In this document: positions 1,111 through 22,649 of the stretch, in pieces
Layout: the number at the start of each line of letters is the position of its first letter
Position numbering within the stretch: position 1 is the first letter of the stretch
Origin: Bacillus aerolatus
Lineage (GTDB): Bacteria > Bacillota > Bacilli > Bacillales > Domibacillaceae
Direction of reading: 5' to 3'
NCBI RefSeq assembly: GCF_009183655.1
Contig: NZ_WEIO01000010.1
Coordinates: 21,416-45,415, forward strand
DNA length: 24,000 nt
Position numbers and translations under genes: made by a program
The notes under the pieces: model-generated
Told to the model about the DNA's origin: nothing
Database searches by the model: none
What the model saw: the letters and a program-made list of their open reading frames with translations, nothing else

Positions 1111-1112
1111 TT

Positions 1113-4761: not shown

Positions 4762-4783
4762 ACTCTCCATTTTTTTGTATGGT

Positions 4784-4820: not shown

Positions 4821-4856
4821 AGAATTTTGTTTACTGGAAATAATACTAATACAAGA

Positions 4857-5186
4857 TTAACTTTTTAGAAGTAATTCAATTCCATTTTCTAAAGTTGAAA
4901 GAAGGTATTTTACAGCGTCGGGATTTTGAGTTTGTAGTTCTTTCATTTTTTTATTTGCGTGAGTGAGCCTTATATCAAGTTCATCCATGCTCTTTTTTTC
5001 AAATGGAAAGAGGTGAAGTTCGGTTTGCAATTTTTCTAAGAGTGATAATTGTATCGTATTTGTTTTCCCTGTCTCTAAATTACTAAGATATCCAGGGGAT
5101 ACACCTAACTTTTCAGCAAAGGCATTCAAGCTTATTCCCTTATTAGTTCTGATTGTTCGGATACGTTGCCCTAAATCGTATAGCAT
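4857..5186 (-). CDS. XRE-family (SinR/cI-like) transcriptional regulator
   Basis: The HTH IRTIRTNKGISLNAFAEKLGVSPGYLSNLETGKTN is typical of the XRE family. The gene is divergent from the micro-ORF and tandem LSR operon. Confidence 0.85.
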   Translation of the reverse strand: MLYDLGQRIRTIRTNKGISLNAFAEKLGVSPGYLSNLETGKTNTIQLSLLEKLQTELHLFPFEKKSMDELDIRLTHANKKMKELQTQNPDAVKYLLSTLENGIELLLKS

Positions 5187-5329
5187 CTAATACCTCCTGT
5201 TCGTATCTATTAACGTGTATGAAAGAATCAAATTGTCCTATTACGGTTTTATTCAATAAGTTTTCAGGGAAATCCTGCTAAACGCTTTCTCTTCTTTGTA
5301 TAGTATTAAAAAAGAAAAAGGAGAAAAAA

Positions 5330-5479
5330 ATGACCAAAAAAATGATAAAGACAGTTTCAGTCAGTTATGTGCATGATCCTGAAGCAGCAGAGAAATGGTT
5401 TCAAATCTATATGGATTTATTACTAGATGAAATGAAAAAGGACAAGTTATCTATCGAGGCCTCATACAATGAAACATAG
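5330..5479 (+). CDS. 49-codon ORF upstream of the tandem recombinases (MTKKMIKTVSVSYVHDPEAAEKWFQIYMDLLLDEMKKDKLSIEASYNET)
   Basis: Not in the ORF track (under 60 aa). A strong RBS, AAAGGAG, lies 7 nt upstream of ATG 5330, and the ORF stops at TAG 5477-5479. It sits between the Xre gene and LSR-2, like a Cro/Xis-position gene. Confidence 0.45.
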   Translation: MTKKMIKTVSVSYVHDPEAAEKWFQIYMDLLLDEMKKDKLSIEASYNET

Positions 5480-5509
5480 GAGAAGGAGGGGTTACTTCTG
5501 AAAACAGTC

Positions 5510-8552: not shown

Positions 8553-8554
8553 AA

Positions 8555-8583
8555 ATCCGCGACATATGTTGTGGATTTTTATT
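8555..8583 (+). terminator. Rho-independent terminator after LSR-3
   Basis: AUCCGCGAC-auau-GUUGUGGAU forms 9 bp including two G-U pairs, followed by TTTTTATTT. Confidence 0.6.
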
Positions 8584-8720
8584 TGGCAGTTATAAGAAAA
8601 GGATAAAGTTACAAAAGTAAAAATACATAGATAAAGATACCTTAAGATTTTATTCAATTAAGTTTGTGAGTCACTAATCATAAATAGGATTGATAGAGAC
8701 TTAATTTTTATTTTGTGAAT

Positions 8721-8918
8721 TCTCGGTTTTTAGGTTATCTTTTGGAATTGTTCTCGGTTTTAAGATAGGTAATCGATCGATTACCTATCTAAAAGCCGAG
8801 AGGAAACCTTAAAATTCTAGCTGGCTCAACGGGTTTACAAGGGAAAAGCTCCTTTGGGGATTATTAGAAAATGAGCATCTCGGTTTTTTAGGTCTGATTA
8901 TTATTGTGTCTCGGTTTT
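8721..8918. repeat. Iteron-like array of four direct TCTCGGTTTT copies plus one inverted copy
   Basis: Direct copies lie at 8721-8730, 8752-8761, 8878-8887 and 8909-8918, forming two pairs each 31 nt apart. An inverted, one-mismatch copy, AAAAGCCGAGA, lies at 8791-8801. Copies 1 and 3 extend to TCTCGGTTTTT(T)AGGT. I found no convincing ORF in 8553-9243. Confidence 0.7.
8752..8801. repeat. 50-bp dyad symmetry element (perfect 28-bp core AGATAGGTAATCGATCGATTACCTATCT)
   Basis: Base-by-base pairing about the 8776/8777 centre gives 23 of 25 complementary pairs. The core 8763-8790 is perfect. The outer arms are iteron copy 2 and the inverted iteron. Confidence 0.8.
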
Positions 8919-9243
8919 TTATATAGTAAAAATAACGTGATAATGATCCGCTCGTATTATTATGTCTGTAATGTTACTAAAGTAACGTAATGACCAACAA
9001 TCCCTCTTGATATTAAATTTTCTGGATTTTATTTTCTCAAAATGTATATGAAGGACAGTGGATAGAACAGCATTAAGGTTTTAGCTTTTTATTTAGTTCT
9101 TTTAGTTAAGCAACATACCACATTTTTTCTTGCTAGTCTCAGCTTTAGCCAAAATACTGTGATGAGAGGGATGAAAAACAATGGATTATTTTTACATAAT
9201 AGGATAAAATTCAAGTATATATTGTGTTTATTTGGAGGATAAT

Positions 9244-11037
9244 ATGGAGCTAAAGTCTTCTTTACAAGAAAATATGAAGCAAGGTGATCCGTTCATTGAA
9301 AGAATGGATAAAGTCTTTGCAAGTCTAAGAGCTGACTTCGATGTTGCTTCGGCTCAATCTTCAAAGAAGAGGATTGCGGAGTTAAAAAAAATCCATGTGG
9401 ACTCAACTAAAAAGGTATCGACCTTAGCAATACAGTGCCAAGAGTCAAATGGGTTTATTAAGGGGTTAAGGGGAACTGGAAAATCCCACTTACTTTTGCT
9501 TGCAAGGGATAAAGTTAATACTGAATCCAACCATCTTTGTATTTACATTAATCTTCAGGAACATTTAAATATAGGTGGTTCAGTTGTAGTACAAGAAAGG
9601 TTTTACGTTTGGGCATTATTAAAACAGTTAAAAAGGCAATTGTTTTATATAATCGATCAAAAAGAAGACGAGAACACAACTATAACAAATATTGCAAAAA
9701 ATTTAGCTCGCTTTTTTTTGATTGATAAAGAAAAAGAAATAGAGCATAAATTAATGTCTATCTTTCAAAAACTAGAAAATTTAATTAGGATAGGTGAAGA
9801 AGAACTACATCTCTTTTCTTTTCAAAAAAAGGATGCACAACGTCTGGAAAGTAATGATGCCTGGGGTCTTGGTGGAGAGGTAAGCAAAGGGAAAACAAAA
9901 TTAAAAGCGAAGTGGAATGAGTCTAGAAAAGAAACAGATTCGACTGAAATAGGTTACCGCGTCGAAAAGATACTTGATACTGATGGACTTAAAACTTTTC
10001 TTATTGAAATTGTAAATGTACTTAACATAAATGGTATAACATTTTTTTATGACGAGTGGAGTATGCTTACCAATAAAGATCAAGAAACATTATCCGTGTT
10101 GATTAGAGCATTGAGTTCTTCACCGATATTTCATTGGATTGCATATATTCCATATAAATCGAGTCTTGGAGTTTTGGAACAACTTGCTGATATGCCGCAT
10201 AATATCGATCTGGACTTGCAATTTATTTTTGAAGAAGATAATAAAGTTTGCACCAATTATTTTAAGGAGTTTATAGATAACCGCTTGAAGTTAGTATTTG
10301 AATCTGACGTGTTTAAAGCACATGCTTTAATTAGACCAAGTGTGTTGGAAATAATGGTTAAGAGTTGCATGGGAAATACTAGAGATTTTGGAGTAATGTT
10401 AAATAAGGCTTGGAATAACTTTAGACAGGATTATTTAGTAACGCAAAAGAATAAGGTTATATCTAAGAAGCATGTTGAAAGAGCAATAAAATCTTTGGCT
10501 GAGGAAAAACAAGATAATTTAAGAGCTAAAAGCTCAAGTAAATATTCTGAACGGCTGTGGATAGAAATTGCAAAATTTATTTCGGAAAAAAAACACACTC
10601 ATTTTTGCATAGAATTATCGGATAAAAATGTTGATTTTATTAAGGAAGAAGAATTCATTGACCTCTTGTATCATAGACTGGTCCACTTAAGAAAAAAGGA
10701 TTATCCGCCTAAAGATGGCGAGAAGAATAGATTATCTATTTATGCTGCTGATGTGAGTGTCTTATTTTATCAAATATTCGAGGTGCGAAGTGAAAACAAG
10801 AAGATAAAGCTGGTGACAGATCTTTCAACTATTCACAACCGAACCAGACGATATATTTTCAACATAGAGAGATGTATTAATGAATTTAGAATGGAACAAG
10901 GTAAACAAGTTCAATGCGCTGCTTGTCGTAAGATAATAACTGAAGAGATGAAACTTGCCTGGGAAAAAGGGATTTGTATTTATTGCATGACACCTTTTTT
11001 GAATGAGGATAACACTTTAAAAGTAACATTGACATAG
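9244..11037 (+). CDS. Unassigned P-loop NTPase (AAA+/archaeal-ATPase-like) with a C-terminal CxxC-x16-CxxC zinc ribbon
   Basis: ATG 9244 lies 5 nt after GGAGG (9234-9238); the track start TTG 9232 is in frame. Motifs are Walker A GLRGTGKSHLL, Walker B-like ITFFYDEWS, a sensor-2-like GNTRDF, and CAAC-x16-CIYC at the C-terminus. Confidence 0.8.
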   Translation: MELKSSLQENMKQGDPFIERMDKVFASLRADFDVASAQSSKKRIAELKKIHVDSTKKVSTLAIQCQESNGFIKGLRGTGKSHLLLLARDKVNTESNHLCIYINLQEHLNIGGSVVVQERFYVWALLKQLKRQLFYIIDQKEDENTTITNIAKNLARFFLIDKEKEIEHKLMSIFQKLENLIRIGEEELHLFSFQKKDAQRLESNDAWGLGGEVSKGKTKLKAKWNESRKETDSTEIGYRVEKILDTDGLKTFLIEIVNVLNINGITFFYDEWSMLTNKDQETLSVLIRALSSSPIFHWIAYIPYKSSLGVLEQLADMPHNIDLDLQFIFEEDNKVCTNYFKEFIDNRLKLVFESDVFKAHALIRPSVLEIMVKSCMGNTRDFGVMLNKAWNNFRQDYLVTQKNKVISKKHVERAIKSLAEEKQDNLRAKSSSKYSERLWIEIAKFISEKKHTHFCIELSDKNVDFIKEEEFIDLLYHRLVHLRKKDYPPKDGEKNRLSIYAADVSVLFYQIFEVRSENKKIKLVTDLSTIHNRTRRYIFNIERCINEFRMEQGKQVQCAACRKIITEEMKLAWEKGICIYCMTPFLNEDNTLKVTLT

Positions 11038-11191
11038 TCCCTAAGGGTTAACTAAGAACTAATTCATTTTAATAGCATTTATTTGGTAATTATGCGACTT
11101 GAAAGCTATCTCAGTATTCATCTTTGTTTTCAATTTGAAAAATAATTTTTTGAATAAAAAACAAAGTCGGGGAACTGACATACAGCATAAT

Positions 11192-11224
11192 AAAAAAGCG
11201 CTGGTTTTTTCCGACGCTTTTTTG
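11192..11224. terminator. Probable bidirectional terminator between the convergent ATPase and restriction genes
   Basis: AGCGCTGG-tttttt-CCGACGCT forms 6 Watson-Crick pairs plus 1 wobble, flanked by an A-run and a T-run. Confidence 0.45.
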
Positions 11225-11308
11225 TTAAACAAAACATTAAAATTGAAGAAGGTGCGGATAATTCCAAGTTAAAGAATTATTCGCCTTTTTTAATCTGCCA
11301 GACCCCTA

Positions 11309-12283
11309 TTACGTTGCCCCAATACTAAAATCCATAAAATATGTTTCAGAATCGATTTTATAGACTCTAACTGATGTTCTTCCATAGTTTATTACGTCTT
11401 GGGGATCTACTCTTTCTCCTAATGGAACACTCAGCCTATTTCTGAAATATTGTCCCATAATGCTGTTGTTTTCAGTGGTATGAATGGCTTTTCGCTCTGC
11501 CTGAGCCATTTTGCAGACAAGATGCTGCCCGTCATCTGTCAGCATTGTAAATGATTGTTCAAGCGGAGGGAAAAAGTCAGGATGCTGATTATTAAATGGC
11601 GTCGGAACTTTTAAGTAAGCCTGATTGGGGTCACGGCCTTCTCTCTGTCCCCAGTTTAAGCCAGCTCTTTCTTGTATAGCAGTATCATTTCGAATCAAAA
11701 GCGGCAGGTCAACATATTCCAGGTGCTGAAGATTAGGAGTTTCCGTATCCTCACCATCTAACTCCAATTGAACGATTTCATCGGTTTGTGGTCTTCTTTG
11801 TACGGTAACATGCTGAAAATTAATATGGTTTTCCACATCAGGATCGGTGCATAAAATGGCATCAGTTACATTAAACACATCGTCCACATTTTCAAAATAG
11901 CAGGGTACCAATAATTCATGCTGATCCCTAAATCCATTCCAAGAAAAATTGGCAGAGCCTGTAAAAGTAACACTGTTATTTAATAATCTGCCGTGAGGCC
12001 AATGGTAGATTTTTGTATGTATTCCAGGACGTGATTTTTGATAACTGATGGAAACATTTTGATATTCCTCCATTATTCGAACGTATTGTTCATGATCCCA
12101 TCTTCTGATCCCGTCTTTTTTTGCCATCCCAATAACAAGCTCAATTTCTAAGTCAGGATACTTTGTTAGAATATGTGTCAAAAAAGCAGATGAAGCGTAT
12201 CCTGATAAAATTCTTAAGGTTCTGTACCCTTCTTCGTATGGTGCGTCAAAAACAATATGTTCTAAATTTGTGACATAATACAT
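11309..12283 (-). CDS. PLD-superfamily restriction endonuclease, NgoFVII/BfiI-like (N-terminal HKD nuclease, C-terminal B3-like DNA-binding domain)
   Basis: A single HKD-type motif, GIHTKIYHW...GSANFS, lies in the N-terminal half. The C-terminal half carries LNWGQREGRDPNQAYLKVP, resembling the BfiI/NgoFVII C-domain. AGGAGG lies 8 nt upstream of the ATG. The gene is divergently paired with a C5-MTase. Confidence 0.78.
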   Translation of the reverse strand: MYYVTNLEHIVFDAPYEEGYRTLRILSGYASSAFLTHILTKYPDLEIELVIGMAKKDGIRRWDHEQYVRIMEEYQNVSISYQKSRPGIHTKIYHWPHGRLLNNSVTFTGSANFSWNGFRDQHELLVPCYFENVDDVFNVTDAILCTDPDVENHINFQHVTVQRRPQTDEIVQLELDGEDTETPNLQHLEYVDLPLLIRNDTAIQERAGLNWGQREGRDPNQAYLKVPTPFNNQHPDFFPPLEQSFTMLTDDGQHLVCKMAQAERKAIHTTENNSIMGQYFRNRLSVPLGERVDPQDVINYGRTSVRVYKIDSETYFMDFSIGAT

Positions 12284-12400
12284 GAGGCATTCCTCCTATT
12301 TGAAATTATTAAATTAATAATATCAAAAATTGGAAAATCAGTCATCAACAATTTTAGAGTTGCTTTGGCATGCTGAGTGTGTTATTTTTCGACATATTCT

Positions 12401-12408
12401 TGTATAAT
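12401..12408 (+). promoter_or_regulatory. Extended -10 promoter element (TGTATAAT) for the methyltransferase
   Basis: TGnTATAAT lies 36 nt upstream of ATG 12444 and is bracketed by two GGCATGC copies (12367-12373, 12412-12418). The -35 is poor. Confidence 0.4.
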
Positions 12409-12443
12409 AGAGGCATGCAACAATAAAAATGGAGTTGTCCTAG

Positions 12444-13640
12444 ATGATATTTAAAAAAGGTGAACTGTTCTGTGGACCTGGAGGATTGTCTTTAGGAGCA
12501 AAATTAGCAGAGGCAGTAAGTAAAGATGGAGAAATTTTTAGAGTAGAGCATGAATGGGCAAATGACTATCATGAAGATACATGTGAAACATTTCGCCTGA
12601 ATATATGTCCAGATAGACCTGAATCCGTTATTTGCGGAGATGTCCGCGAATTAGATATTGAGGGCTTGCCAGAAATTGACCTTTTCTGCTTCGGTTTTCC
12701 ATGCAATGATTATAGTATTGTAGGAGAAACCAAAGGGCTTGAAGGTGATTATGGACCTCTTTATACTTACGGCATCAAAGTATTAAAGCACCATCAGCCG
12801 AAAGTTTTCATTGCTGAAAATGTAGGAGGGCTTGAAAGTGCGAACGATGGGAGGGCGTTCATTCAAATCCTAAAATCAATGGAAGAGGCGGGATATAACA
12901 TTACTCCTCACCTGTACAAATTTGAAGAATACGGAATTCCGCAGGCTCGACATCGAATTATCATTGTAGGAGTACACAAATCTCTTGGATGGAAATTTCA
13001 AGTGCCAATGCCTCCCTATAAAAATGATCCAGAGAATTGGACTTCGGCTAAAAAGGCAATTGAAAACCCTCCAATTCTAGAGAATGCTTTCAATCATGAA
13101 TTTACCAACCATGCAAAGAAAGTAGTGGAGATGCTAACCATCATCAATCCTGGAGATAATGCATGGGCGGATTATATTCCAGAAAATCTACGGCTGAATG
13201 TAAAAGGGGCAAAAATGTCCAATATATACAAGCGGCTTGATCATAAATCTCCTGCCTATACGGTAACAGGAAGCGGAGGTGGCGGGACTCACATGTATCA
13301 CTATGGTGAGCCTAGGGCCCTAACGAATCGCGAACGTGCAAGGCTTCAGACATTCCCTGACTGGTATCAATTTGTAGGAAAGAAAGAAAGTGTGCGCCGA
13401 CAGATCGGAATGGCTGTTCCTGTTGACGGAGCCAAAATCATTGTCCAAGCCATTCTGGATTCTTTTGCTGGGAACGAATATCCAACGGAGCCATCCAAGT
13501 GGGAAGAGGAGTTGGCTGAAATGCTGGAGACAGGGAAAAAAGCCAAAAAGAAAAAACGCACTAGAGGAACGAAAGTAAAAGTTGAGGCTTCTGAAGAACA
13601 AACCGAATTGGAACTGAAAACCGAAGAGCCTGTTAAATAG
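12444..13640 (+). CDS. DNA (cytosine-5)-methyltransferase
   Basis: Motifs are I FCGPGG, IV GFPCNDYS (PCN instead of PCQ), VI ENV, VIII QARHRIIIVG, then RERARLQTFPD and GMAVPV. There is an unusual ~55-aa K/E-rich C-terminal tail. Confidence 0.92.
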   Translation: MIFKKGELFCGPGGLSLGAKLAEAVSKDGEIFRVEHEWANDYHEDTCETFRLNICPDRPESVICGDVRELDIEGLPEIDLFCFGFPCNDYSIVGETKGLEGDYGPLYTYGIKVLKHHQPKVFIAENVGGLESANDGRAFIQILKSMEEAGYNITPHLYKFEEYGIPQARHRIIIVGVHKSLGWKFQVPMPPYKNDPENWTSAKKAIENPPILENAFNHEFTNHAKKVVEMLTIINPGDNAWADYIPENLRLNVKGAKMSNIYKRLDHKSPAYTVTGSGGGGTHMYHYGEPRALTNRERARLQTFPDWYQFVGKKESVRRQIGMAVPVDGAKIIVQAILDSFAGNEYPTEPSKWEEELAEMLETGKKAKKKKRTRGTKVKVEASEEQTELELKTEEPVK

Positions 13641-13664
13641 GAGACCTTGATGGTCTCTTTTTTT
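13641..13664 (+). terminator. Rho-independent terminator after the methyltransferase
   Basis: GAGACC-ttgat-GGTCTC followed by TTTTTTT. Confidence 0.6.
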
Positions 13665-13729
13665 GTCTGTTTTAGCTTCTATGGTTATGGGAATAAAAAT
13701 AGTAAAACTCTATGAAAAAGGTGACATTT

Positions 13730-14146
13730 ATGGCGGATATGAGCAAGGAAAAAAGGTCAAAGACAATGAAAGCCATAAAGTCTGTTTCAAAGCTTGAAAA
13801 CAGAGTGACGAAAGCTCTCTGGGAAAAGGGATTTCGGTTTAGGAAGAACGCAAAATTGTTCGGAAAGCCAGACATCTCCATACAAAAATATAAAATAGCC
13901 ATCTTTATCGATTCCTGCTTCTGGCATGTGTGTCCAATTCACAGCAATATACCAAAGACCAATCAGGAATACTGGATAAAAAAGCTGAAGCGAAACCAGG
14001 AGCGCGATAGAGAAGTAAGTGATTATTATAATGAAAAGGGATGGCATGTGTTGCGGATATGGGAACATGAATTAAAAGGTGATTTTCAGAGTACAATTAA
14101 TAAAATAGCCATCTTTATTAACGAACACAAAACTAAATATAAGTAA
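13730..14146 (+). CDS. vsr: Very-short-patch repair endonuclease (Vsr)
   Basis: GKPDISIQKYKIAIFIDSCFWHVCP and the N-terminal KEKRSKTMKAIKS match the Vsr core pattern. ATG 13730 has AAAGGTG 7 nt upstream (track start 13712). The gene is adjacent to a C5-MTase, as is typical. Confidence 0.88.
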   Translation: MADMSKEKRSKTMKAIKSVSKLENRVTKALWEKGFRFRKNAKLFGKPDISIQKYKIAIFIDSCFWHVCPIHSNIPKTNQEYWIKKLKRNQERDREVSDYYNEKGWHVLRIWEHELKGDFQSTINKIAIFINEHKTKYK

Positions 14147-14164
14147 ATCGCTAATAAACGAAAA

Positions 14165-14192
14165 AAGGAGCCCTCAAAAGGTGCTCCTTTTT
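14165..14192 (+). terminator. Rho-independent terminator after vsr
   Basis: AAGGAGC (14165-14171) pairs with GCTCCTT (14183-14189), followed by a T-run. Confidence 0.6.
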
Positions 14193-14353
14193 CATCTGTA
14201 AGTTTAGTGCGTCCGTTGGAAGAATAGCTGTTTCATAACTGTTAAATAAAGCGGATTATTCAGATTTATTTTGAAAATAATGTTAAAGTATTAATTGGAT
14301 ATTCTGAAAAATTGATCAATGAAGTTTTTATGGAATTACAAGGAGAGAAAGAT

Positions 14354-15331
14354 ATGGACAGAGATCATGCTAAAGTTTTTGTAAGTTATAGTTGGGATAA
14401 TCCTGATCACCAGAGTTGGATTCGATATTTCACTAATGAATTAAGAAAGAAGGGGATAAATGCAAACTGCGACCAATTCATCTTGCAGAGACAAACTAAG
14501 AATTTAAATCAAATGATGATTGAGGGAATCCGAGATAACGATTTCGTTATATATGTCTTGACGGAAAATTATAAGACTAAATCCGACCAGTTTCAGGGAG
14601 GGGTTGGATTCGAACAATTGCTTTCTCTTTCTACTCTTCGAAATAATCCAGATAAATTTATTCTTATTAAGAAAAGTGCAGCAAGTTTTGAGGATGTATT
14701 GCCATTTCATTTAGAAGACTATTCTGTGTTTGATTTTTCAAATGAGGATAAGTTTGATGAAAACATAATCAAACTAGTCTATCGTATTTACGGTATTGAC
14801 TACTATGAAGTTGCCCCTCTAGGACCTGTTCCTGATTTAGTGGCAAAGACAGAAAAATCGAGTGAGCAAGTCCAAACAAGTAATTGGTTGTCGGCAATAG
14901 AAGCATCCATTCCAATCAAAATAACTGACTTAGATAAAAATAATTTTATACGGAGTGCGTTTACTGAAATTATTGAAAAGCTAAAAGAACTATTGGACTA
15001 CGTAAAACAAAGGGATCCAGCCGTGAACTATACTATTGATCAAAGCTTAAGACAGGTAGTAGTAAAATTGTATCAAAACGGAGAATACAGATCTGGAACT
15101 AAAATATGGGTTGGAGAATTTTTTGGGAGTCGTACAGAAAGCATTTTTATATCAAATGATGTCTCATCCATTTCGAACAACTCGTACAACGAACAGATCG
15201 TTTGTAAAGTTTCAAAGGAGAATCAATTAATTCTTGAAATGAACTTTGGTGCTTTTTACTCTCAGGATGCTGATTTATTGACGCCAGAAAAGATTGCTCT
15301 TCAAATTTGGGATAGACAATTGAAGAACTAA
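14354..15331 (+). CDS. SEFIR/TIR-fold domain protein with an unassigned ~160-aa C-terminal domain (candidate single-gene NAD-depleting defence protein)
   Basis: ATG 14354 has AAGGAG 8 nt upstream (track start 14312). The N-terminal [37 protein letters not shown] matches the SEFIR/TIR_2 opening pattern (hFhSYS..D..H..Wh..h...L...Gh.h..D). A candidate catalytic Glu lies in GGVGFEQLL. The C-terminal half has no recognisable motif. Confidence 0.72.
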
Positions 15332-15390
15332 GGGGAAGGTTGCTATTTCACGGATATTGCTTATTCTGGAAAACATCTTTGCGAAAGGAT

Positions 15391-16020
15391 GGCTGGGCTT
15401 CCTACTGGCATCAGCGCATCGTCCGCGAACTGGATTTAACGTCTGGAGAAGCGATTGAATTCGCCAAGCTGAACGCAGGAGTTGTGCAGCCGTCGCGCAC
15501 ATCAATTAATCCGTATTATCTCGGCTTAAAAATGTTTGAAGACATTGAAGAACGTTATAATAATCCGACAGAAGAAATGAAACGGCACGGCGTTCAACCG
15601 GGGTCTGGCCGGGAAAAAATGTTTGAAGTCCGGGAAATTGAATCTGATATTTCGTTTTTGCGCAATTACTTAACGAAAGAGCTTGTCTCAAGGGAAGACA
15701 TGTATTTATTTCAGAAAAAAGGAAAAGATTATAAAATTACTGATAAAGAATGGACAAACGTGCGCGACCAGCTCGTCAGTATGAGGGTAAATGGCGGTTT
15801 TCCTTATTTGACTGTCAATGACAGCGATTATATGAAAGCAGGAGAGTTGTATGTGAAGCACTGGTATGAAGGAATTGAACTCGACTTAAGGTACTTGGAA
15901 AAAGTTCTTCCGCATTTATATACGCTCTGGGGGAGAACAGTTCACTTAGAGACAATTGTCGAAGACCGTGAAATTCTCTTCAGTTTCAGCGGCAATAAAA
16001 TGCAGCGCAAGTATTTATAA
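15391..16020 (+). pseudogene. spoVR: 3' segment (last ~209 codons) of the split sporulation gene spoVR
   Basis: [35 protein letters not shown]...[13 protein letters not shown]...[16 protein letters not shown]...[11 protein letters not shown]... is near-colinear with the C-terminal half of B. subtilis SpoVR (468 aa, recalled from memory). The 17 residues before G18 of the track ORF do not match, and ATG 15340 has no RBS. Confidence 0.85.
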
Positions 16021-16023
16021 CAG

Positions 16024-16060
16024 ACGGGTGTCCGGCCTTTCCCGGCCGCCCGTTTTTTTA
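16024..16060 (+). terminator. Rho-independent terminator of spoVR
   Basis: The GC-rich stem ACGGGTGTCCGG / CCGGCCGCCCGT is followed by TTTTTTT. Confidence 0.75.
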
Positions 16061-16128
16061 ATGAGTTTTGTTTGTAAATAAGAAGGGAAAAATATGAAAG
16101 GAATATTTGGCTGGGAGGAGGAAAAAGA

Positions 16129-16818
16129 ATGACGGGATTCATCTTTATGTTTCTTTATTTTTTGATCGTCACTTTCGTTATTGAGATTTCAGTCATTTTA
16201 TTTAACTTAACCGGATTAGAAACAGCTGTTTCCCGTTATCAAGTCGTTTCCATGCTAACTGGAACAGGATTTACGACAGATGAATCGCAGCTGATTATTG
16301 ATCATCCGGTCCGCCGGAGACTCAGTATGTTTCTCATTTTATTCGGCGCTTTTTCTCTCGCAGTGATTATTTCTTCCATTACAAATATTTTATCAGATGA
16401 TTTAAGGATCAAGGAATTATCCATTATTAATGTTGTCCTGCTCACTATGCTTCTTATTGGAAAAACGCCATTTATTAGAAATAAGCTGAACAAAAAATTT
16501 CATTATGAGATGGAAAAGAAACTGGAACTTTCGGAACTGCCTGTTAAAGAGGCGCTTTACTTAGGGGAAGACGATCTAGTGACGGATGTATTTATCAGCG
16601 AAGAGTCTGACTTTATTGGAAGAAAAGTGACAGATCTTATTGGCAGAGATGAAGACATTAGTGTTTTGTTTATTAAGAGGGGAAAAGTGAATATCCGAAG
16701 GCAATTGGAGAAGGAGAAAATTCAGGAAGGCGACCAGTTGTTTATTTATGGTAATAAGGAGCAAATTGTGGAGAGGTTCCTTAAGAGCAAAAATGAAAAA
16801 GAAAGCTCATCACACTGA
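16129..16818 (+). CDS. Membrane protein with a C-terminal TrkA-C (RCK_C) domain, putative ion-channel/transport regulator
   Basis: GGAGGAGG RBS. Hydrophobic N-terminal helices flank a pore-loop-like LTGTGFTT. The C-terminus GRKVTDL...ISVLFIKRG...IQEGDQLFIYG is typical of TrkA-C. Confidence 0.7.
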   Translation: MTGFIFMFLYFLIVTFVIEISVILFNLTGLETAVSRYQVVSMLTGTGFTTDESQLIIDHPVRRRLSMFLILFGAFSLAVIISSITNILSDDLRIKELSIINVVLLTMLLIGKTPFIRNKLNKKFHYEMEKKLELSELPVKEALYLGEDDLVTDVFISEESDFIGRKVTDLIGRDEDISVLFIKRGKVNIRRQLEKEKIQEGDQLFIYGNKEQIVERFLKSKNEKESSSH

Positions 16819-17631
16819 GCTCTCCTGTCGATTCTTTTCCTGCAGCCTCTCCATTACACGGCGTTTCCGGTAAAGCATCATGCCGGTTTCAGCAATGTCA
16901 TGAATAGCCGAGCGATTCGTGAAAGCCCCAAACACGATGCCGGCAATTGGAACGAGCTGCATCATTTTTTTCCAGCCAAATTGATCGCGGTACGTATAAA
17001 TAACTTCCCGCCAGCCCTGCAATTGAGAAATCATCTCCCTGCTTTGTTTCCGGCTGCTATAAAAGTTGGACAAGTCATTCAATATCACTTTTTTGCCAAC
17101 CACGTCTGACGAAGAAAACTGCAGGCATTTAATAATAAAAATGCGTTCTTCTTTTTGTTTTGGGTCGTAACCGTAGGCGATGGCAATTTCCTGAAGCGTT
17201 TTTAATGACAGTCCGAGCAGCAAAGGGATGTCCACTGCAAGGGTAAACACTCCGCCCACGCCTGTTGAAGCTCCCTGTACAGTCGCCATATTCGCGCGTG
17301 ACTTTTTCAAGGTTTCACTTATAGCGTCCATTTTTTCAAGCGGGGCGGCACCGGCGTCTTGAATAGAATGAATGGCTGTTTCGGGATTTGCTTCTTGTAT
17401 TTTCTTTAATACGCTTTTTTCCTGGATTAAATATTGTCCGCCCGTCTGAATAAAGCTGCCAATTTCATCGAGCAGCTGGCCGATCTTATTTTGAATGACT
17501 TTTGGTGTAATCCGGTCAAGCAGCTTGAATGGAAGGCGGGCGATTCTTTCCCAAATCCATAGCTGTTTTTGTTCTTGTTCCCACTTTTCAATTGCCGCGA
17601 GTTCCGTTAATAAATGTTCCTTCGTTTCCAT
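16810..17631 (-). CDS. EcsC-family protein
   Basis: GASTGVGGVFTLAVDIPLLLGLSLKTLQEIAIAYGYDP and the C-terminal PIAGIVFGAFTNRSAI resemble B. subtilis EcsC (from memory). ATG 17631 is preferred over the TTG 17652 track start, which has no RBS. The 3' end overlaps the convergent gene by 9 nt. Confidence 0.7.
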   Translation of the reverse strand: METKEHLLTELAAIEKWEQEQKQLWIWERIARLPFKLLDRITPKVIQNKIGQLLDEIGSFIQTGGQYLIQEKSVLKKIQEANPETAIHSIQDAGAAPLEKMDAISETLKKSRANMATVQGASTGVGGVFTLAVDIPLLLGLSLKTLQEIAIAYGYDPKQKEERIFIIKCLQFSSSDVVGKKVILNDLSNFYSSRKQSREMISQLQGWREVIYTYRDQFGWKKMMQLVPIAGIVFGAFTNRSAIHDIAETGMMLYRKRRVMERLQEKNRQESSV

Positions 17632-17770
17632 TTCTATCCCAACCTTTTTCAAATGTTAATACATATACGCCAGCGGTCCGTATGAAGTTTCAATAAAATG
17701 GCTGATTTATATGAGAAAGAAGATTACGCGCTTTTTATCGCCTTTCTTGCATATTTTACATGCTTATGGA

Positions 17771-17812
17771 AAAAATGGCCCCTTTACCAACAGAAGAAAT
17801 TAGGTAAAGGGG
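17771..17812 (-). terminator. Rho-independent terminator of the ArsC-like gene
   Basis: A perfect 10-bp stem, CCCCTTTACC (17779-17788) / GGTAAAGGGG (17803-17812), has a U-run on the minus strand (A-run at 17771-17776). Confidence 0.7.
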
Positions 17813-17813
17813 C

Positions 17814-18233
17814 TTATTTTAATGCTTCTTTTAAGTTTCTCACATGGTCAGCTAATTCATCGCATACGATTTGATAAGCTGCCCATTTTTCCAGCGCATC
17901 TTTGCAGTGTGCCGGGTTAGTTATGTTCCAGCGGAGGACTTTCTTATTAGAAGTAAGCGGAAGATCGGGGTGCTGATCACGTTGAAAATCATAAATATTC
18001 ACAATTAGATCCGCACTCTTAATTAAGTGAGGCGCTAGCAGTTTCGGCTCCTTATTTGTGATATCTATATTGACTTCTTTCATTGCTTCTATAGGAAGGT
18101 CATCATCTTGGGCTTTCAGAAATGATGCACTAACAAAGTTTAATGAAGGCTCATTTAATCTAGAGGCCCATCCCTCCGCCATGATGCTTAAATCGTTAGA
18201 TGTAGAAAGAAGTAAGATATTTTTATTGTCCAT
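17814..18233 (-). CDS. ArsC (thioredoxin-type)/LMW-PTP-fold protein lacking all catalytic cysteines
   Basis: IMAEGWA and AMKEVNIDITNK align with B. subtilis ArsC (CTGNSCRSQMAEGWA, AMKEVGIDISN). The P-loop reads STSNDLSI instead, and the Cys82/Cys89 region reads NIYDFQRDQHP. AAAGGGG RBS. Confidence 0.75.
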   Translation of the reverse strand: MDNKNILLLSTSNDLSIMAEGWASRLNEPSLNFVSASFLKAQDDDLPIEAMKEVNIDITNKEPKLLAPHLIKSADLIVNIYDFQRDQHPDLPLTSNKKVLRWNITNPAHCKDALEKWAAYQIVCDELADHVRNLKEALK

Positions 18234-18379
18234 TATTTAAGCCCCTTTGCCGTCATTCTATTTCTTTTTTACCCTTTTTTTCAAAGAATAAGCATAAAGC
18301 CAAAAAAAATTTCCTTCGAATTTAATCCGAAAGTATCAGATCTAAAGTTTTGGGTGCAAACTGGGAGGTTCGTGAAGAT

Positions 18380-18685
18380 TTAATGATGTTTCGCATGCTC
18401 AATCGCCTGGGATAAAAGGTCAATAACATGTTCGTCGTCGTGTGAGTAAAATAAGGTCGTTCCTTCCCGGCGATATTTAACGAGCCTTAAATTTTTTAAA
18501 AAACGAAGCTGATGCGAAACGGTGGATTGGAGCAGCGATAATTTTTCAGCAATGTCGTTTACAGAGTGTTCGCCGTTAAAAAGCAGATTCAAGATTCTTA
18601 ACCGTGTCGGATCTGACAGCGCTTTAAAAGTTTGGGAAACGATAAACAAGGTTTCTTCATCCAATTCTATATGTTTCTTTTTCAT
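18380..18685 (-). CDS. ArsR/SmtB-family metalloregulator (CzrA-like alpha5 site)
   Basis: The wHTH is [13 protein letters not shown]...[25 protein letters not shown], and the C-terminus carries DDEHV...IEHAKHH ligand candidates. ATG 18685 has GGAGG upstream (track start 18748). Confidence 0.85.
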
Positions 18686-18883
18686 TGCAGTTTCCTCCAG
18701 ATAGATTCTTGTTAAGTTATCGTACCAAAAAAGTGAAAGGGCTGCCATGCAGTAAAGAAAAGGTAAATATGTTTGGGTAGTTGGAAAAAGCGGTAAACTT
18801 AACTATATTTTTGTAATTCTTGTTTTTGTCAGTTATGATAGAAATTGTGTCTAATTAATGAACTAGGGAAAGGGGAACGGTTA

Positions 18884-20119
18884 ATGAAACTTACTGGCCG
18901 AATTATCATCGCTTTAATTGCTGGTGCTATAGTAGGGCTGCTGCTCAATATATTTGCACCAAACGTCTATAATGTATTAGATCCTTATCTTTTTACCCCG
19001 CTAGGCCGAATTTTTCTTAACCTTATCAGTATGCTTGTCGTACCAATCGTATTTCTTTCCATCATTTTAGGAGCAGCCGGTTTAGGTGATCCTAAGAAAC
19101 TTGGCCGAATCGGATTGAAAACGATTACTTATTTTTTGATCACTACAAGTATTGCCATTATTATTGGTTTAATCGTCGCCGGAGTCGTTCAACCGGGAGA
19201 AGCCGGAAACTTTGATGTCGAAAGTGCAGAATTCTCCGCTGAAAAAGCTCCTCCTGTAGGAGAAACTTTGCTCAATATCATTCCAAAAAATCCGCTTGAT
19301 GCAATGACTCAAGGCAACATGCTCCAAATTATTGCTTTCGCTCTCTTTATTGGACTCGCATTAACTGCACTCGGTGAAAAAACAAAAGGCGTCTTAAACT
19401 TAGTAGAACAAGGTAATGACATTATGATGTACCTTGTCGGAGTCGTTATGAAGTTTGCCCCGTACGGCACATTTGGATTAATTGCTTCAGCTATTGGAAG
19501 CCAGGGCTGGTCTGCTATTAAAGCGATGGGCATTTATATGATTTGTGTTCTTGCTGCATTGATTATTCACGGGCTGTTAACTTATGGGGGCACGATTTTG
19601 CTGCTTGCTAGAAAAAGCCCAGTCTGGTTCTTTAAAAACTTTGCGCCTGCAATGAGTGTAGCTTTTAGTACGTCAAGCAGTAACGCGACACTGCCGATTT
19701 CCATGGAAGTGGCGCAAACACGTTTGAATGTACCAAAGTCAATCAGCTCATTCGTCCAGCCTCTCGGCGCAACGATTAACATGGACGGAACTGCAATCAT
19801 GCAAGGGGTTGCTACTCTTTTTATCGCTCAAGTTTATGGAATTGACTTATCCCTCGGTGAACTTGCAACTGTAGTATTAACAGCGGTATTGGCAAGTATC
19901 GGAACAGCCGGCGTACCCGGAGTAGGGCTGATTATGCTGGCGATGGTATTGAGCAGCGTCGGTCTTCCGGTAGAAGGAATTGGTTTGATCCTCGGAATCG
20001 ACCGTGTGCTTGATATGGCACGAACAGCTGTCAACATTTCCGGTGACGCTGCTTGTGCGGTCTATGTCGCTGAAACAGAAAAGAAAAAAACAATTAAAGC
20101 ACAGCGTTCAGGCGCTTAA
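18884..20119 (+). CDS. Dicarboxylate/amino acid:cation symporter (DAACS family, GltP/GltT-like)
   Basis: Polytopic membrane protein with SSSNATLP and the NMDGTA family motifs. ATG 18884 follows AAAGGGGA (track start 18845). Confidence 0.88.
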   Translation: MKLTGRIIIALIAGAIVGLLLNIFAPNVYNVLDPYLFTPLGRIFLNLISMLVVPIVFLSIILGAAGLGDPKKLGRIGLKTITYFLITTSIAIIIGLIVAGVVQPGEAGNFDVESAEFSAEKAPPVGETLLNIIPKNPLDAMTQGNMLQIIAFALFIGLALTALGEKTKGVLNLVEQGNDIMMYLVGVVMKFAPYGTFGLIASAIGSQGWSAIKAMGIYMICVLAALIIHGLLTYGGTILLLARKSPVWFFKNFAPAMSVAFSTSSSNATLPISMEVAQTRLNVPKSISSFVQPLGATINMDGTAIMQGVATLFIAQVYGIDLSLGELATVVLTAVLASIGTAGVPGVGLIMLAMVLSSVGLPVEGIGLILGIDRVLDMARTAVNISGDAACAVYVAETEKKKTIKAQRSGA

Positions 20120-20127
20120 ATCAGCGA

Positions 20128-20170
20128 CAGCAAGTGTGGCAAAAAAAGCACACTTGCTGCTTTCTTATTT
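20128..20170 (+). terminator. Rho-independent terminator after the symporter
   Basis: A perfect 11-bp stem, CAGCAAGTGTG / CACACTTGCTG, is followed by a T-rich tract. Confidence 0.8.
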
Positions 20171-20239
20171 TCATTTTAATTATTTTTATATATAATAAGG
20201 CAATCAACAGCTTATAAAAGCAAAAGGAGATAATCGCAT

Positions 20240-20413
20240 ATGAATCTCGGCTTTGGAGAAGTGGCAATTATTCTTATTGTAGCACTATTGCTTTTTGGCC
20301 CTTCCAAGCTTCCGCAGCTCGGCAAAGCAGCCGGACAGACACTTCATGAGTTTAAACGTGGCATGAAAGGCGTAATGGAAGAGGAAGAAGAGAAAAAACC
20401 GAAGACACACTAA
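20240..20413 (+). CDS. tatA: Twin-arginine translocase TatA/E-family protein (57 aa)
   Basis: Not in the ORF track (under 60 aa). AAGGAG lies 9 nt upstream of the ATG. MNLGFGEVAIILIVALLLFGPSKLPQLGKAAGQTLHEFKRGMK carries the TatA signature (FG.....LP.LG...G..h..FK). A terminator follows. Confidence 0.88.
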   Translation: MNLGFGEVAIILIVALLLFGPSKLPQLGKAAGQTLHEFKRGMKGVMEEEEEKKPKTH

Positions 20414-20428
20414 TTTCATTAAATCGAA

Positions 20429-20461
20429 GGGCTGCCGGTTAATAACCGCCAGCCTTTTTTA
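20429..20461 (+). terminator. Rho-independent terminator after tatA
   Basis: GGCTGCCGG / CCGCCAGCC (one mismatch) followed by TTTTTT. Confidence 0.7.
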
Positions 20462-20503
20462 TGTGCAGATGTACTACAACAGATAAGGAGAAATCGGTGA
20501 AAA

Positions 20504-20532
20504 TTGGCGATTTAAGGCGAATAAGTTATAAT
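20504..20532 (+). promoter_or_regulatory. Candidate sigmaA promoter of the PBP gene
   Basis: TTGGCG (20504-20509), a 17-nt spacer and a perfect TATAAT (20527-20532) would give a ~165-nt leader. Confidence 0.45.
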
Positions 20533-20702
20533 GAAATTCTTATTGTGTGCAGCTAAGTGTCCGAAGCAAAATAAACGGCGCCGGCGAAACGCAATTTGGT
20601 TGAAATCTTAGCCGCTGAGCTGTCCCAAAAGCAAAGAGCCGAGCAACTATGGGACAGCCTGTAGATTGAATTGGGCTTATTCAGGAGGAACAAAAGAAAA
20701 GT

Positions 20703-22649
20703 ATGAATGCAATTACCAAGTTTATGAAAAGTTTGTGGAGAAAGTTTCACCTTACACAAATTATGGTCTTAGCCGTGTCCGTCATTGTTTTAGCCGGACT
20801 CGGGTTTATAGTCTTTTTTATGAAATCAGCAGATGTCGAAACGTTAAAGCGCGGACTGTCTCAATCAACTGTTCTTTATGATGCAAATGGCGATAAGGCG
20901 AGTAAGCTGTCGGCGAACCGTTCGGACAGCGTACCGATCGGGAAAATGCCTGAGCACTTGCAAGAAGCCGTCATCTCAATTGAAGACCACCGCTTTTATG
21001 AACATAACGGTTTTGACTTAAAAGGAATAGGGCGGGCGTTTTTTAAAAACACTTTTACGAGTAGCGTGCAGGGCGGGAGCACCATTACCCAGCAACTGAC
21101 GAAAAATGCTTTGCTCTCACCTGAACAAACGTATAAAAGAAAAGTGGAAGAACTTTTTCTAGCGATTGAAATTGAAAAGGTTTATAAGAAAAAAGAGATT
21201 TTGGAAATGTATTTAAATACGATTTATTTTGGCAGCGGTTCGTGGGGAGTTCAAAATGCCTCGAAAAAATATTTCGGAAAGAGTGCAAGTGAACTGACCC
21301 TCAGTGAATCGGCGATGCTTGCTGGAATTATTAAAGCGCCATCTGTACTTGATCCGTATAAAAATTTGGAAAAAGCCACCGCGCGCAGAAATTTAGTACT
21401 CGATCAAATGGCGAAGTACGGCTATATTACGAGCGAAGAAGCAGAGAATGCTAAGAACAAACAAACTGTTCTCGATGATACGAGCGGCGACCCATTAAAA
21501 GGAAAATATCCTTATTACGCTGATGCGGTCATAAACGAAGCGATTAATCGTTTCGGGCTGACGCAAAATGACCTGTTAACGAAAGGTTACGAAATCTATA
21601 CAGCAATGGATCAGGGCGTGCAAGCAGGATTGGAAGATGTATATGAAAAAGACTGGCTGTTCCCGGATTCTGTGAACGGGGATCCATCTCAAAGCGCCGC
21701 TGTTTTAGTGAATCCGAAAACAGGCGGAGTAATGGCCGTTGTCGGCAAGAGGGGAGAGCATGTGTTTAGAGGATTTAATTACGCGACACAGTCGAAAATA
21801 GAGCCGGGCTCCACGTTAAAGCCGCTCGTCGTCTACACGCCGGCTTTGGAAGAAGGCTATACGCCCGATTCTATGCTGAAAGATGAACCTCAAGACTTTG
21901 GCGGCTACACGCCAGAAAATTATGGGGGAACTTACCGGGGGGAAGTAACGATGAACAAGGCGCTGGAAAAGTCGCTTAATCTGCCAGCAGTTTGGCTGTT
22001 AAATGAAATTGGCATCTCCAAAGGCCTGGATGCTTTAGAGAGATTTGGCATTCCGGCCGAAAAAGTAGATAGGGAACTGGGCATTGCTCTTGGCGGGGGC
22101 ATGGTCGTGTCACCTCTGCAGCTCGCCCAGGCGTATACGACTTTCCCAAATAGCGGTGTGCGCAAAGACAGCTTCTTCATCCAAAAGATTATCGGTCCGG
22201 AAGGTGAAGTTAAACCGAAATGGACACCTGAAGAAACGCAAGTTACGACGAAAGAAGTGTCAAATGAAATTAACGCGATGCTGTTAAATGTAGTGAAGCA
22301 CGGAAGCGGCAAGAAAGCAAAAGTTTCAGGCGTGGAACTCGCAGGGAAAACCGGCTCCACTCAAGTTCCTGCAGGAGGAAGCGGTACGAAAGATCAGTGG
22401 TTTGTCGGCTACACGCCTGATGTCGTCGGTACGGTATGGATTGGAGTAGAAAATGCAGACCAAGAAAACCATCTCGCCAAAAACAGTTCGGATGGAGCCG
22501 TTCCGTTATTTAAAGAAATTATGCAAGAAATTATGCCAGAGCTGGAAGGTACTTCTTTCGATGTAGAATCTATTGAAGAAGAAAAGAAAAAAGAAGAAGA
22601 AAAAGACTGGTTTGACAAAGCCGTTGATAAATGGAATGAACTATTTTAA
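20703..22649 (+). CDS. Class A penicillin-binding protein (glycosyltransferase GT51 plus transpeptidase)
   Basis: GT51 motifs are EDHRFYEHNG, GGSTITQQ and RKVEE. Transpeptidase motifs are STLK, SLN and KTGST. There is an N-terminal membrane anchor and an AGGAGG RBS. Confidence 0.92.
   Translation: MNAITKFMKSLWRKFHLTQIMVLAVSVIVLAGLGFIVFFMKSADVETLKRGLSQSTVLYDANGDKASKLSANRSDSVPIGKMPEHLQEAVISIEDHRFYEHNGFDLKGIGRAFFKNTFTSSVQGGSTITQQLTKNALLSPEQTYKRKVEELFLAIEIEKVYKKKEILEMYLNTIYFGSGSWGVQNASKKYFGKSASELTLSESAMLAGIIKAPSVLDPYKNLEKATARRNLVLDQMAKYGYITSEEAENAKNKQTVLDDTSGDPLKGKYPYYADAVINEAINRFGLTQNDLLTKGYEIYTAMDQGVQAGLEDVYEKDWLFPDSVNGDPSQSAAVLVNPKTGGVMAVVGKRGEHVFRGFNYATQSKIEPGSTLKPLVVYTPALEEGYTPDSMLKDEPQDFGGYTPENYGGTYRGEVTMNKALEKSLNLPAVWLLNEIGISKGLDALERFGIPAEKVDRELGIALGGGMVVSPLQLAQAYTTFPNSGVRKDSFFIQKIIGPEGEVKPKWTPEETQVTTKEVSNEINAMLLNVVKHGSGKKAKVSGVELAGKTGSTQVPAGGSGTKDQWFVGYTPDVVGTVWIGVENADQENHLAKNSSDGAVPLFKEIMQEIMPELEGTSFDVESIEEEKKKEEEKDWFDKAVDKWNELF

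Follow-up and report, generated by a model that had tools for sequence, protein, structure and literature searches.

A large-serine-recombinase element splits spoVR in Bacillus aerolatus: a putative vrin-type defence island, probably excised during sporulation

The sporulation gene spoVR of Bacillus aerolatus is split by a recombinase-bearing element, and we consider it probable that this element was inserted by one particular large serine recombinase (LSR), here called LSR1, and that it excises in the terminal mother cell to restore SpoVR. Both halves of the gene are present and can be joined into a single open reading frame (ORF), the junction has the architecture of a recombinase attachment (att) site, a related species has the corresponding empty site, and recombinases of the LSR1 type are associated with this target in other elements as well. 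The window analysed here (the whole stretch of 24,000 nucleotides, numbered from its first letter) would contain the right junction (attR) of an integrative element lodged in spoVR codon ~261, together with the right-hand part of the element and the host genes that follow (Table 1).

The split gene and its empty site

spoVR is a member of the sigmaE regulon. According to the original prediction, made from the letters of the window, only the 3' end of the gene (about 209 codons) is present, behind 17 unrelated codons and some 15 kb of AT-rich DNA with three LSRs. Each of these points was confirmed. The Pfam SpoVR match of the ORF at 15340-16020 (+) is limited to profile positions 260-405 of 407, with the SpoVR_C domain in addition; SpoVR homology begins at the G of GWASY (15391), and 15391-16020 correspond to the last 209 SpoVR codons plus the stop. 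The first 17 codons of the ORF (15340-15390) lie outside the match and are foreign, since intact SpoVR orthologues read EEMLYFWPQLETKIMNE just before the breakpoint, where the window has 17 unrelated residues. The G+C content is 0.31-0.39 across most of 1-15300, rising locally to 0.42 over the methylase gene (12500-14000), and is 0.40-0.49 in most of the host flank on the right side of the window; this profile and the Pfam domains of the three LSRs agree with the description of the left-hand DNA.

The stop codon of the bSEFIR/TIR gene, at 15329-15331, stands directly left of the spoVR ORF, whose annotated start is TTG in GenBank (226 aa) and ATT, at 15319, in RefSeq (233 aa). The claim that this ORF has no RBS stands in part: it is without a convincing translation start, but "no RBS" is too strict a wording, as a purine run, GGGGAAGG (15332-15339), adjoins the TTG at 15340, with zero spacer. 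No terminator had been predicted between 15331 and the spoVR terminator, and a simple terminator scan of 14000-16300 agrees, with no terminator-like site except one just past the spoVR stop, at 16033-16058.

Table 1. Features of the window and of its flanks, with GenBank protein accessions where given
Feature	Position	Strand	Accession	Basis or remark
spoVR 5' fragment			KAB7704902 (F9802_15160)
Right-hand 15.4 kb of intervening element	1-15390			Left end off the window, ~3 genes further left
Excisionase-like protein, N-terminal HTH and coiled coil	246-1073	+		Weak Pfam HTH_17 match (E 2.5e-4, under cut-off)
RecJ-family exonuclease	1113-2780	-	KAB7704907	TIGR00644, 422 bits vs cut-off 397
LSR1, predicted spoVR-specific integrase/excisase	2949-4409	-		ORF 2949-4454; likely start ATG 4409 with GGAGG RBS; Pfam
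76-aa ORF divergent from LSR1, candidate RDF	4531-4761	+		Weakly conserved counterpart beside LSR1 orthologues
XRE-family repressor	4857-5186	-	KAB7704910	NCBIfam and PHROG matches; 61% identical to CP033051 counterpart
LSR2	5510-6985	+	KAB7704911	Pfam; CTG start at 5498 with well-spaced GGAGG possible
LSR3, overlapping LSR2	6972-8552	+		Pfam
Five TCTCGGTTTTT repeats, including a 50-bp spacer-less palindrome (8752-8801)	8721-8919
601-aa Walker-A protein, function unassigned	9232-11037			Cargo
NgoFVII-family endonuclease	11309-12283	-	KAB7704914	Pfam, PADLOC; type II restriction-modification
C5 methylase	12444-13640		KAB7704915	Pfam, PADLOC; type II restriction-modification
Vsr endonuclease	13712-14146			Pfam, PADLOC; type II restriction-modification
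bSEFIR/TIR defence protein	14312-15331			Pfam, PADLOC (E 4.5e-46)
Element-side arm (P arm) of attR, AACATCTTTGCGAAAGGAT	15372-15390	+		Near-identical arm in CP033051 attR (L082, 9943)
Core common to attR, attL and attB, GGCTGGGCTTCCTAC	15391-15405	+		Alignment
spoVR 3' part, 209 codons and stop	15391-16020	+	KAB7704917	Pfam SpoVR and SpoVR_C
spoVR intrinsic terminator	16023-16058	+		Terminator scan and direct sequence reading
Downstream host genes: TrkA-C protein, 280-aa protein, ArsC-like, ArsR, GltP, class A PBP	16129-22649
Next host gene after spoVR			KAB7704918 (F9802_15245)

The 226-aa product of the window ORF is 100% identical to a B. aerolatus protein. The missing 5' half turned up when the N-terminal portion of another SpoVR, a related one, served as query. 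It is a B. aerolatus protein of 269 aa (P0166), with the C-terminal end LETKIMNEGWASYRKDV*; this protein and the 3' fragment are each encoded on a 170,187-bp contig, 15 protein accessions apart, and the element genes are numbered between the two halves in window order (Table 1). No proteins other than KAB7704903-905 separate the 5' fragment from the first gene that is complete in the window, and with only these ~3 genes to its left the whole element would measure roughly 17-20 kb. For B. aerolatus, the protein sequence and the order of accessions serve to predict attL, the strand that carries the 5' half and the precise length of the element.

When P0166 up to GWASY is joined in silico to the window fragment, the product has 469 aa; Pseudobacillus wudalianchiensis and Bacillus sp. 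B190/17 have intact SpoVR proteins of 469/470 aa that match it with 92% identity at 100% coverage. P. wudalianchiensis (locus L001) also provides the empty site: downstream of its intact spoVR come counterparts of the genes at 16129-22649 of the window, collinear and with 74-97% amino-acid identity, and none of the element genes (1-15390) is present there. A 5' half upstream, a continuous ORF of ~465 aa on joining, an empty site in close relatives and a short core common to both junctions had all been foreseen, and each was found, the core being GWASY (GGCTGGGCTTCCTAC) at either junction, on the 5' side as read from the protein sequence. The possibility had also been raised that an intact second spoVR exists elsewhere in the genome; a search of the protein database with the joined sequence found no intact B. 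aerolatus SpoVR. Compared with L001, the spoVR 3' part has a dN of 0.04, the lowest among neighbouring genes, with a dS of ~1.8 and neither frameshift nor stop; as dS is saturated, the low dN would also be compatible with a recent insertion followed by loss of function.

Homologues of the excisionase-like protein at 246-1073 occur in most of the related elements (L081, L013, L033, L047), and the RecJ-family exonuclease is 63% and 52% identical to its homologues in the CP033051 and Bacillus sanguinis elements, respectively. Among the locus tags of the element is one that lacks a protein product, and no entry of the protein collection has the exact Vsr sequence; Vsr may be a pseudogene. No phage structural, packaging or lysis genes were found in the visible 15.4 kb (with the ~3 left-end genes lying outside), where the PHROG matches are to an integrase, a RecJ-like exonuclease and a repressor, and for want of phage structural genes the element is better called a defence island than a prophage.

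Attachment sites and recombination genes

In an alignment, four attR sequences, four attL sequences and an intact attB have the core GGCTGGGCTTCCTA(C) in common, and the element arms beside it are inverted repeats. The attR of the window reads AACATCTTTGCGAAAGGAT, then GGCTGGGCTTCCTAC, then TGGCAT, and its P arm and the attL arm CGTAAAGATGTT (L081) are inverted repeats of each other; the P arm is also identical at 17 of 19 positions to the P arm of the complete element in CP033051. In that genome, attR consists of AACATCTTTGCGAAACGAA followed by GGCTGGGCTTCC and attL of AACGAA followed by GGCTGGGCTTCGTATCGTAAAGATGTT, and the element ends are inverted repeats of one another, AACATCTTTGCG pairing with CGTAAAGATGTT. 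The same arm is visible from the 5' side of the B. aerolatus gene, where the RKDV* tail of P0166 is the translation of CGC AAA GAT GTT T.., the inverted repeat of the P arm in the window.

The reconstructed attP is a near-palindrome of ~46 bp with the dyad centre GCTGGG, such as is expected for a large serine recombinase; it would run AACATCTTTGCG...GGCTGGGC...CGCAAAGATGTT, its centre matching the conserved spoVR sequence for NEGWASY, and the attB predicted for the rejoined gene reads ATGAACGAAGGCTGGGCTTCCTACTGGCAT. Because the attL of Peribacillus saganii departs from attB right after GGCTG and the attR of the window departs from it right before GGCTG, the crossover appears to be confined to these five nucleotides (15391-15395), and the dyad centre of attP suggests that it most likely takes place at TG 15394-15395. 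A search of the window for an internal att-like site gave chance-level matches only, so that the visible 15.4 kb show no trace of a composite element.

The three LSRs (each with the Pfam domains Resolvase, Recombinase and Zn_ribbon_recom) are all full length, with the catalytic Ser motif preserved (RVS, RNS and RHS). We compared them with six related elements: those of CP033051, Peribacillus saganii (L013), Bacillus sanguinis (L047), a metagenome genome (L033), an IMG/VR sequence (L084) and GCA_036676095.1 (L125). LSR1 has homologues in five of the six, with 51-71% identity across the elements, the L047 locus ending before one is reached; LSR1 of the window itself is 52-68% identical to the LSR of the related spoVR elements. 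In P. saganii, 116 bp separate the LSR1 orthologue from attL. LSR2 and LSR3 are 26-29% identical to their counterparts in L013, L033 and L082 (CP033051) and 41-49% identical to those in L084; the low value for CP033051 is found despite almost identical spoVR att arms. A minimal element of 7.9 kb (GCA_036676095.1), collinear between spoVR halves and carrying the same core and palindromic arms, contains a single LSR, 60% identical to LSR1, and neither LSR2 nor LSR3. Since LSR1 is conserved and is the sole LSR of this minimal element, we assign integration and excision at spoVR to LSR1, which is likely to be the only one of the three LSRs that acts on spoVR.

A small ORF (~70-80 aa) stands divergently beside the LSR1 orthologue in all five elements that allowed a check, with a weak L..W..+I+ motif in the alignment. 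BLAST gave no link between the small ORF of the minimal element and the 76-aa ORF of the window, which are connected through the alignment and this motif, and these resemblances point weakly to homology among the small divergent ORFs. By analogy with the pairs sprB/sprA and skr/spoIVCA, the 76-aa protein is the natural candidate for a recombination directionality factor (RDF). LSR1 and the ORF at 4531-4761 would form the spoVR-specific recombination unit, and LSR2/LSR3 an optional second module. We also considered LSR1 as a common prophage integrase and rejected this, as in IMG/VR a search with LSR1 alone returned nothing and an alignment query returned generic phage LSRs of at most 37% identity plus two short contigs. 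GenBank phage records held no integrase above 35% identity to LSR1.

Excision and the alternatives to it

The course of events that we propose is an insertion by site-specific recombination with LSR1 as the integrase, and an excision by LSR1, probably with the 76-aa protein as directionality factor, that would give back the precise 469-aa SpoVR. To judge by analogy from vrin, skin and SPbeta, excision would most likely occur in the terminal mother cell during sporulation, and the spore genome would keep the island with its defence cargo (bSEFIR and NgoFVII-type restriction-modification). We infer that the element is still capable of excision, and the same analogy suggests that in B. aerolatus this excision would be specific to the mother cell.

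Four relatives have, upstream of the small ORF, the sequence GGGTTGT-N14-16-GCATAnnnT, whose -10 is of the CATA type known from mother-cell promoters and whose -35 does not match; in the window this sequence is degenerate. Regex scans for sigmaE/sigmaK promoters gave no match at relevant positions upstream of LSR1 or the 76-aa ORF. A candidate sporulation promoter at 98-91 (-), CATACAAT, was discarded as part of the canonical sigmaA promoter TTGACA-N17-TACAAT.

Near the recombination genes we recognised no promoter of the sigmaE/sigmaK type, and the island has an XRE repressor and a strong sigmaA-type promoter, like ordinary mobile elements. These observations would also suit an ordinary integrative element that uses spoVR as a mere conserved landing site and excises sporadically or under stress, in which case B. 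aerolatus would effectively be a spoVR mutant. Beall and Moran are said to have described, in 1994, spoVR mutants of B. subtilis that still form some spores, so permanent inactivation would not be lethal, and the replacement 3' ends of spoVR at loci L054, L069 and L048 suggest a costly disruption that is not always rescued by excision. We nevertheless hold such an element to be unlikely, as neither spoVR half is damaged here or in dozens of other lineages, the site lies within a mother-cell gene, as for skin, SPbeta, vfbin and gin, and excision during sporulation is reported, in papers that cite the original work, for the spoVR element of Geobacillus.

The evidence speaks more strongly against a decayed and immobile relic, in which the recombinases or att sites would be dead and the spoVR fragments pseudogenes in the course of being lost. 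Junction DNA was seen at the right end only, one locus tag lacks a protein product and Vsr is possibly a pseudogene, but three full-length LSRs with their catalytic Ser motif, a P arm that matches a second complete element at 17 of 19 positions, and a spoVR 3' part with a dN of 0.04 and no lesions make a relic very improbable. As for an assembly artefact, that is, a chimeric contig with an intact spoVR in the real genome, nothing specific favours it except that the assembly is a draft, and it is scarcely credible given that the breakpoint coincides exactly with that of independent elements in complete genomes such as CP033051, that the junction bears the conserved att arm of the family, and that GenBank and RefSeq annotate fragments only, with no intact B. 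aerolatus SpoVR in the database.

Related elements and known systems

The original prediction had mentioned intervening elements in sporulation genes, and the literature does describe vrin in spoVR, vfbin in spoVFB and one in gerE. As reported by the papers that cite its description (Abe et al. 2013; see PMC4191935, PMC6957869 and PMC5025042), vrin interrupts spoVR in (Para)geobacillus thermoglucosidasius C56-YS93, and the spoVR element of Geobacillus thermoglucosidasius excises, with spoVR restored in sporulation (Abe 2013, cited by PMC4191935, PMC5025042 and bioRxiv 10.1101/2021.11.22.469490). The element of B. aerolatus resembles vrin in the gene that is cut, the serine-type recombinase and the halves that can be rejoined. 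In Geobacillus sp. B4113 (L083) the break falls at the same codon, after NEGWASF, and the attL arm is homologous (TTCGTTTCGCAAAGG vs TATCGTAAAGATG); the cargo differs, beginning with a Schlafen-like ATPase, a transposase and metal-resistance genes. This att arm suggests that LSR1 would be homologous to the published vrin enzyme. The split gene, both halves, the rejoinable ORF, the LSR and the att sites would together make the B. aerolatus element one of the vrin type, within the skin/SPbeta class.

In that class, skin (in sigK, with SpoIVCA and Skr) and SPbeta (in spsM, with SprA and SprB) of B. subtilis are likewise LSR elements in a mother-cell gene, have an integrase gene with a small adjacent candidate RDF gene (the unit being described as attL-rdf-int-attR), and are kept in the germ line, a further likeness to the B. 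aerolatus element. Unlike them, the latter targets spoVR, is without phage structural genes and has two extra LSRs and a RecJ. The fdxN element of Anabaena (XisF, with XisH and XisI) also involves excision by an LSR from a gene that only a terminally differentiated cell requires, but belongs to another phylum and another developmental programme; LSR1 matches the NCBIfam XisF model with an E of 6e-59 and 200 bits, far under the equivalog cut-off of 375, and was therefore rejected as an XisF orthologue.

The overlapping tandem pair LSR2/LSR3 recalls the CcrA/CcrB pair of SCCmec-type elements, which are also alike in their accessory and defence cargo, and the internal attP-like site of the CP033051 island, which bounds a cassette without a recombinase, recalls composite or pseudo-SCC arrays. 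Identity with SCC elements was ruled out on the NCBIfam CcrA/CcrB scores, 48-90 bits for LSR2/3 and, for LSR1, 118 (CcrA) and 229 (CcrB), all far under the cut-offs of 700-900. In contrast to SCC, where the target is rlmH, the target here is spoVR, and the spoVR-specific enzyme is apparently a single LSR. Integrative conjugative elements of Streptococcus may carry a serine-recombinase triplet (Ambroset et al. 2016, PMC4701971) and so resemble the B. aerolatus element in having three LSR genes as a recombination module; they differ in that LSR1 is divergent and separable from LSR2-LSR3, that conjugation genes are missing in the B. aerolatus element, and that the minimal element has LSR1 alone.

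The same breakpoint recurs widely. The complete element of CP033051, a closed genome, measures 24.6 kb between collinear spoVR halves at 2,471,450 and 2,496,917. A break between NEGWAS(Y/F) and W, with related arms, is found in this genome, Geobacillus sp. B4113, GCA_036676095.1, Bacillus sanguinis and Ureibacillus manganicus, and Peribacillus saganii shares the breakpoint with a different arm. Among the 120 N-terminal SpoVR clusters listed, a list that is biased to short proteins, 93 stop at most 45 residues after NEG, and in ~70 NEGWAS[YF] is followed by short arm-encoded tails (RKGA, RKDV, CKGA); the latter indicate that the halves persist intact in many lineages. These fragment clusters come from Bacillus, Peribacillus, Schinkia, Geobacillus, Anoxybacillus, Aneurinibacillus, Brevibacillus, Paenibacillus and others. 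As judged from these sequences, one spoVR codon is an insertion hotspot across many genera of Bacillales. In a set of 80 species-representative genomes, spoVR is plainly split in three (L013, L047, L070), and an intact spoVR is followed by extra 3' copies in three to five more; some related cassettes bring a replacement spoVR 3' end with them (L054, L069, L048).

With the B. aerolatus element, a phenomenon known since 2013 is extended by one species, and as a headline this will hardly surprise a specialist. The comparative gain lies in the spoVR site as a recurrent hotspot in many genera of Bacillales, and in a minimal unit of one LSR and a small divergent ORF, which offers a testable set of integrase, RDF and att sites that might serve genome engineering. 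The elements are also vehicles for anti-phage systems (bSEFIR, restriction-modification, CBASS, STAND NTPases), which would pass through the spore and yet be removable from the terminal mother cell. A wider reading, suggested by the internal attP-like site in CP033051, is that the NEGWASY codon is a landing pad, throughout the family, for modular defence islands driven by LSR1, and that these islands grow as SCC elements do, by adding recombinase-less cassettes; some cassettes appear to evade the need for developmental excision by supplying a replacement spoVR 3' end; LSR2/LSR3 and the iteron-flanked palindrome of 44-50 bp would then be an independent second system, for the capture or exchange of cargo or as an alternative integration site. 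We offer this extension only tentatively and think it rather doubtful. The TCTCGGTTTTT repeats of the B. aerolatus element number five against 1.0 expected and are all located inside 200 bp, and palindromes analogous to that at 8752-8801 are found downstream of LSR3 in L082, L033 and L013.

Possible tandem accretion and extra spoVR 3' copies

The complete 24.6-kb spoVR element of CP033051.1 carries an internal attP-like site at the boundary between its recombinase-bearing part and a 4.8-kb cassette without a recombinase, which encodes a STAND NTPase and a 303-aa protein and whose end is attR, one of the two element junctions with spoVR. Judged from sequence, this arrangement of an additional attP-like site and a recombinase-free cassette looks like tandem accretion in the style of SCC.

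At L054, L069 and L048 (also at L008 and L074), the 3' part of spoVR is repeated once or twice a few kb downstream of an intact spoVR gene. The att core forms the start of the extra copy in at least L054 and L069, and in L054 the P arm, the element-side att arm, precedes each extra copy. We found no recombinase in the intervening segments of L054 (both segments) and L069, and the outermost 3' copy of L054 is decaying. Such cassettes may have brought a replacement spoVR 3' end with them, keeping spoVR intact without excision.

The minimal spoVR-splitting element carries only one orthologue of LSR1, the predicted spoVR-specific large serine recombinase, and the small divergent ORF; its other genes encode an LtaS-like sulfatase, a PAS-GGDEF-EAL protein and a nucleotidyltransferase. 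This element would be a convenient experimental model.

Positions of features in the window and in related loci
Feature	Locus	Position	Strand	Description
Gene start (MPKKPGSKKITSPRVAK...)	window	51	minus	extends past left window edge
49-aa ORF	window	5330-5479		strong RBS; ahead of LSR2
Repeat cluster	window	8721-8919		five copies of TCTCGGTTTTT in 200 bp, directly downstream of LSR3
Palindrome	window	8752-8801		50 bp, spacer-less, GA|TC centre
601-aa protein	window	9232-11037		Walker-A motif (GLRGTGKSH) and C-terminal Cys-rich motif
Internal attP-like site AACATCTTTGCGATACGAAGGCTGTGATTCGTTTCGTAAAGATGTT	L082 (CP033051.1)	5143-5190		complete; within 24.6-kb spoVR element
Extra spoVR 3' copies	L054	14188-14838 and 18357-18826
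Extra spoVR 3' copy	L069	19181-19810
Extra spoVR 3' copy	L048	16036-16690
Minimal spoVR-splitting element	L125 (GCA_036676095.1, contig JAKFDP010000019.1)	10778-18800		7.9 kb

Repeats and palindrome beside the LSR2/LSR3 pair

The palindrome downstream of LSR3 is made of two of the five TCTCGGTTTTT copies. Palindromes of 40-46 bp occupy the equivalent position in three related elements (CP033051, L082 1460-1690; a metagenome genome, L033 12312-12357; Peribacillus saganii, L013 16121-16160), and their sequence, which is not conserved among these elements and the window, varies in parallel with LSR2/3 divergence. This palindrome and repeat site could serve LSR2/3 as a substrate, act as an origin or form a regulatory hub. 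The window contains the 12-mer ATTGTGTCTCGG in exactly two places, against 0.06 occurrences expected. One copy (143-154) lies upstream of the Xis-like gene at 246, in the divergent promoter region, and the other (8903-8914) within the iteron cluster. This distribution suggests that a single element-encoded DNA-binding protein recognises both sites.

Gene starts

A near-consensus sigmaA promoter, TTGACA-N17-TACAAT (region 1-116), precedes the minus-strand gene at the left window edge, and the listed plus-strand ORF 50-259 is probably not a gene. LSR1 translation most likely begins not at the GTG at 4454 but at an ATG with a GGAGG RBS (4409). LSR2 may start with the CTG at 5498, which has GGAGG 8 nt before it and would give the usual N-terminus (M)KTV.Y.R.S. 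Both starts probably deviate from the mechanical ORF list.

Defence cargo

Defence genes likewise make up most of the cargo of related spoVR elements (L081 11102-14780, L082 3416-8985, L047 12279-18500). The cargo in CP033051 includes a CBASS operon (SMODS cyclase, E2, SAVED) together with genes for a PIN-like protein, a GTPase and a STAND NTPase. Bacillus sanguinis (L047) has a three-gene cluster (products of 1072, 484 and 498 aa) whose layout looks like that of a type I restriction-modification system. In the window, the gene of the 601-aa protein lies between the palindrome and the restriction-modification system. This protein matched no family in PADLOC or PHROG and none significantly in Pfam/NCBIfam, and it has no homologue in the related spoVR elements; its gene may be an uncharacterised defence gene. 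The protein collection lacks the exact sequence of the Vsr ORF (13712-14146), and no protein product is recorded for one locus tag of the B. aerolatus element; the Vsr annotation may therefore be that of a pseudogene or use a different start. Within the Vsr gene, the 19-nt sequence ATAAAATAGCCATCTTTAT forms a perfect direct repeat (13890-13908 and 14100-14118).
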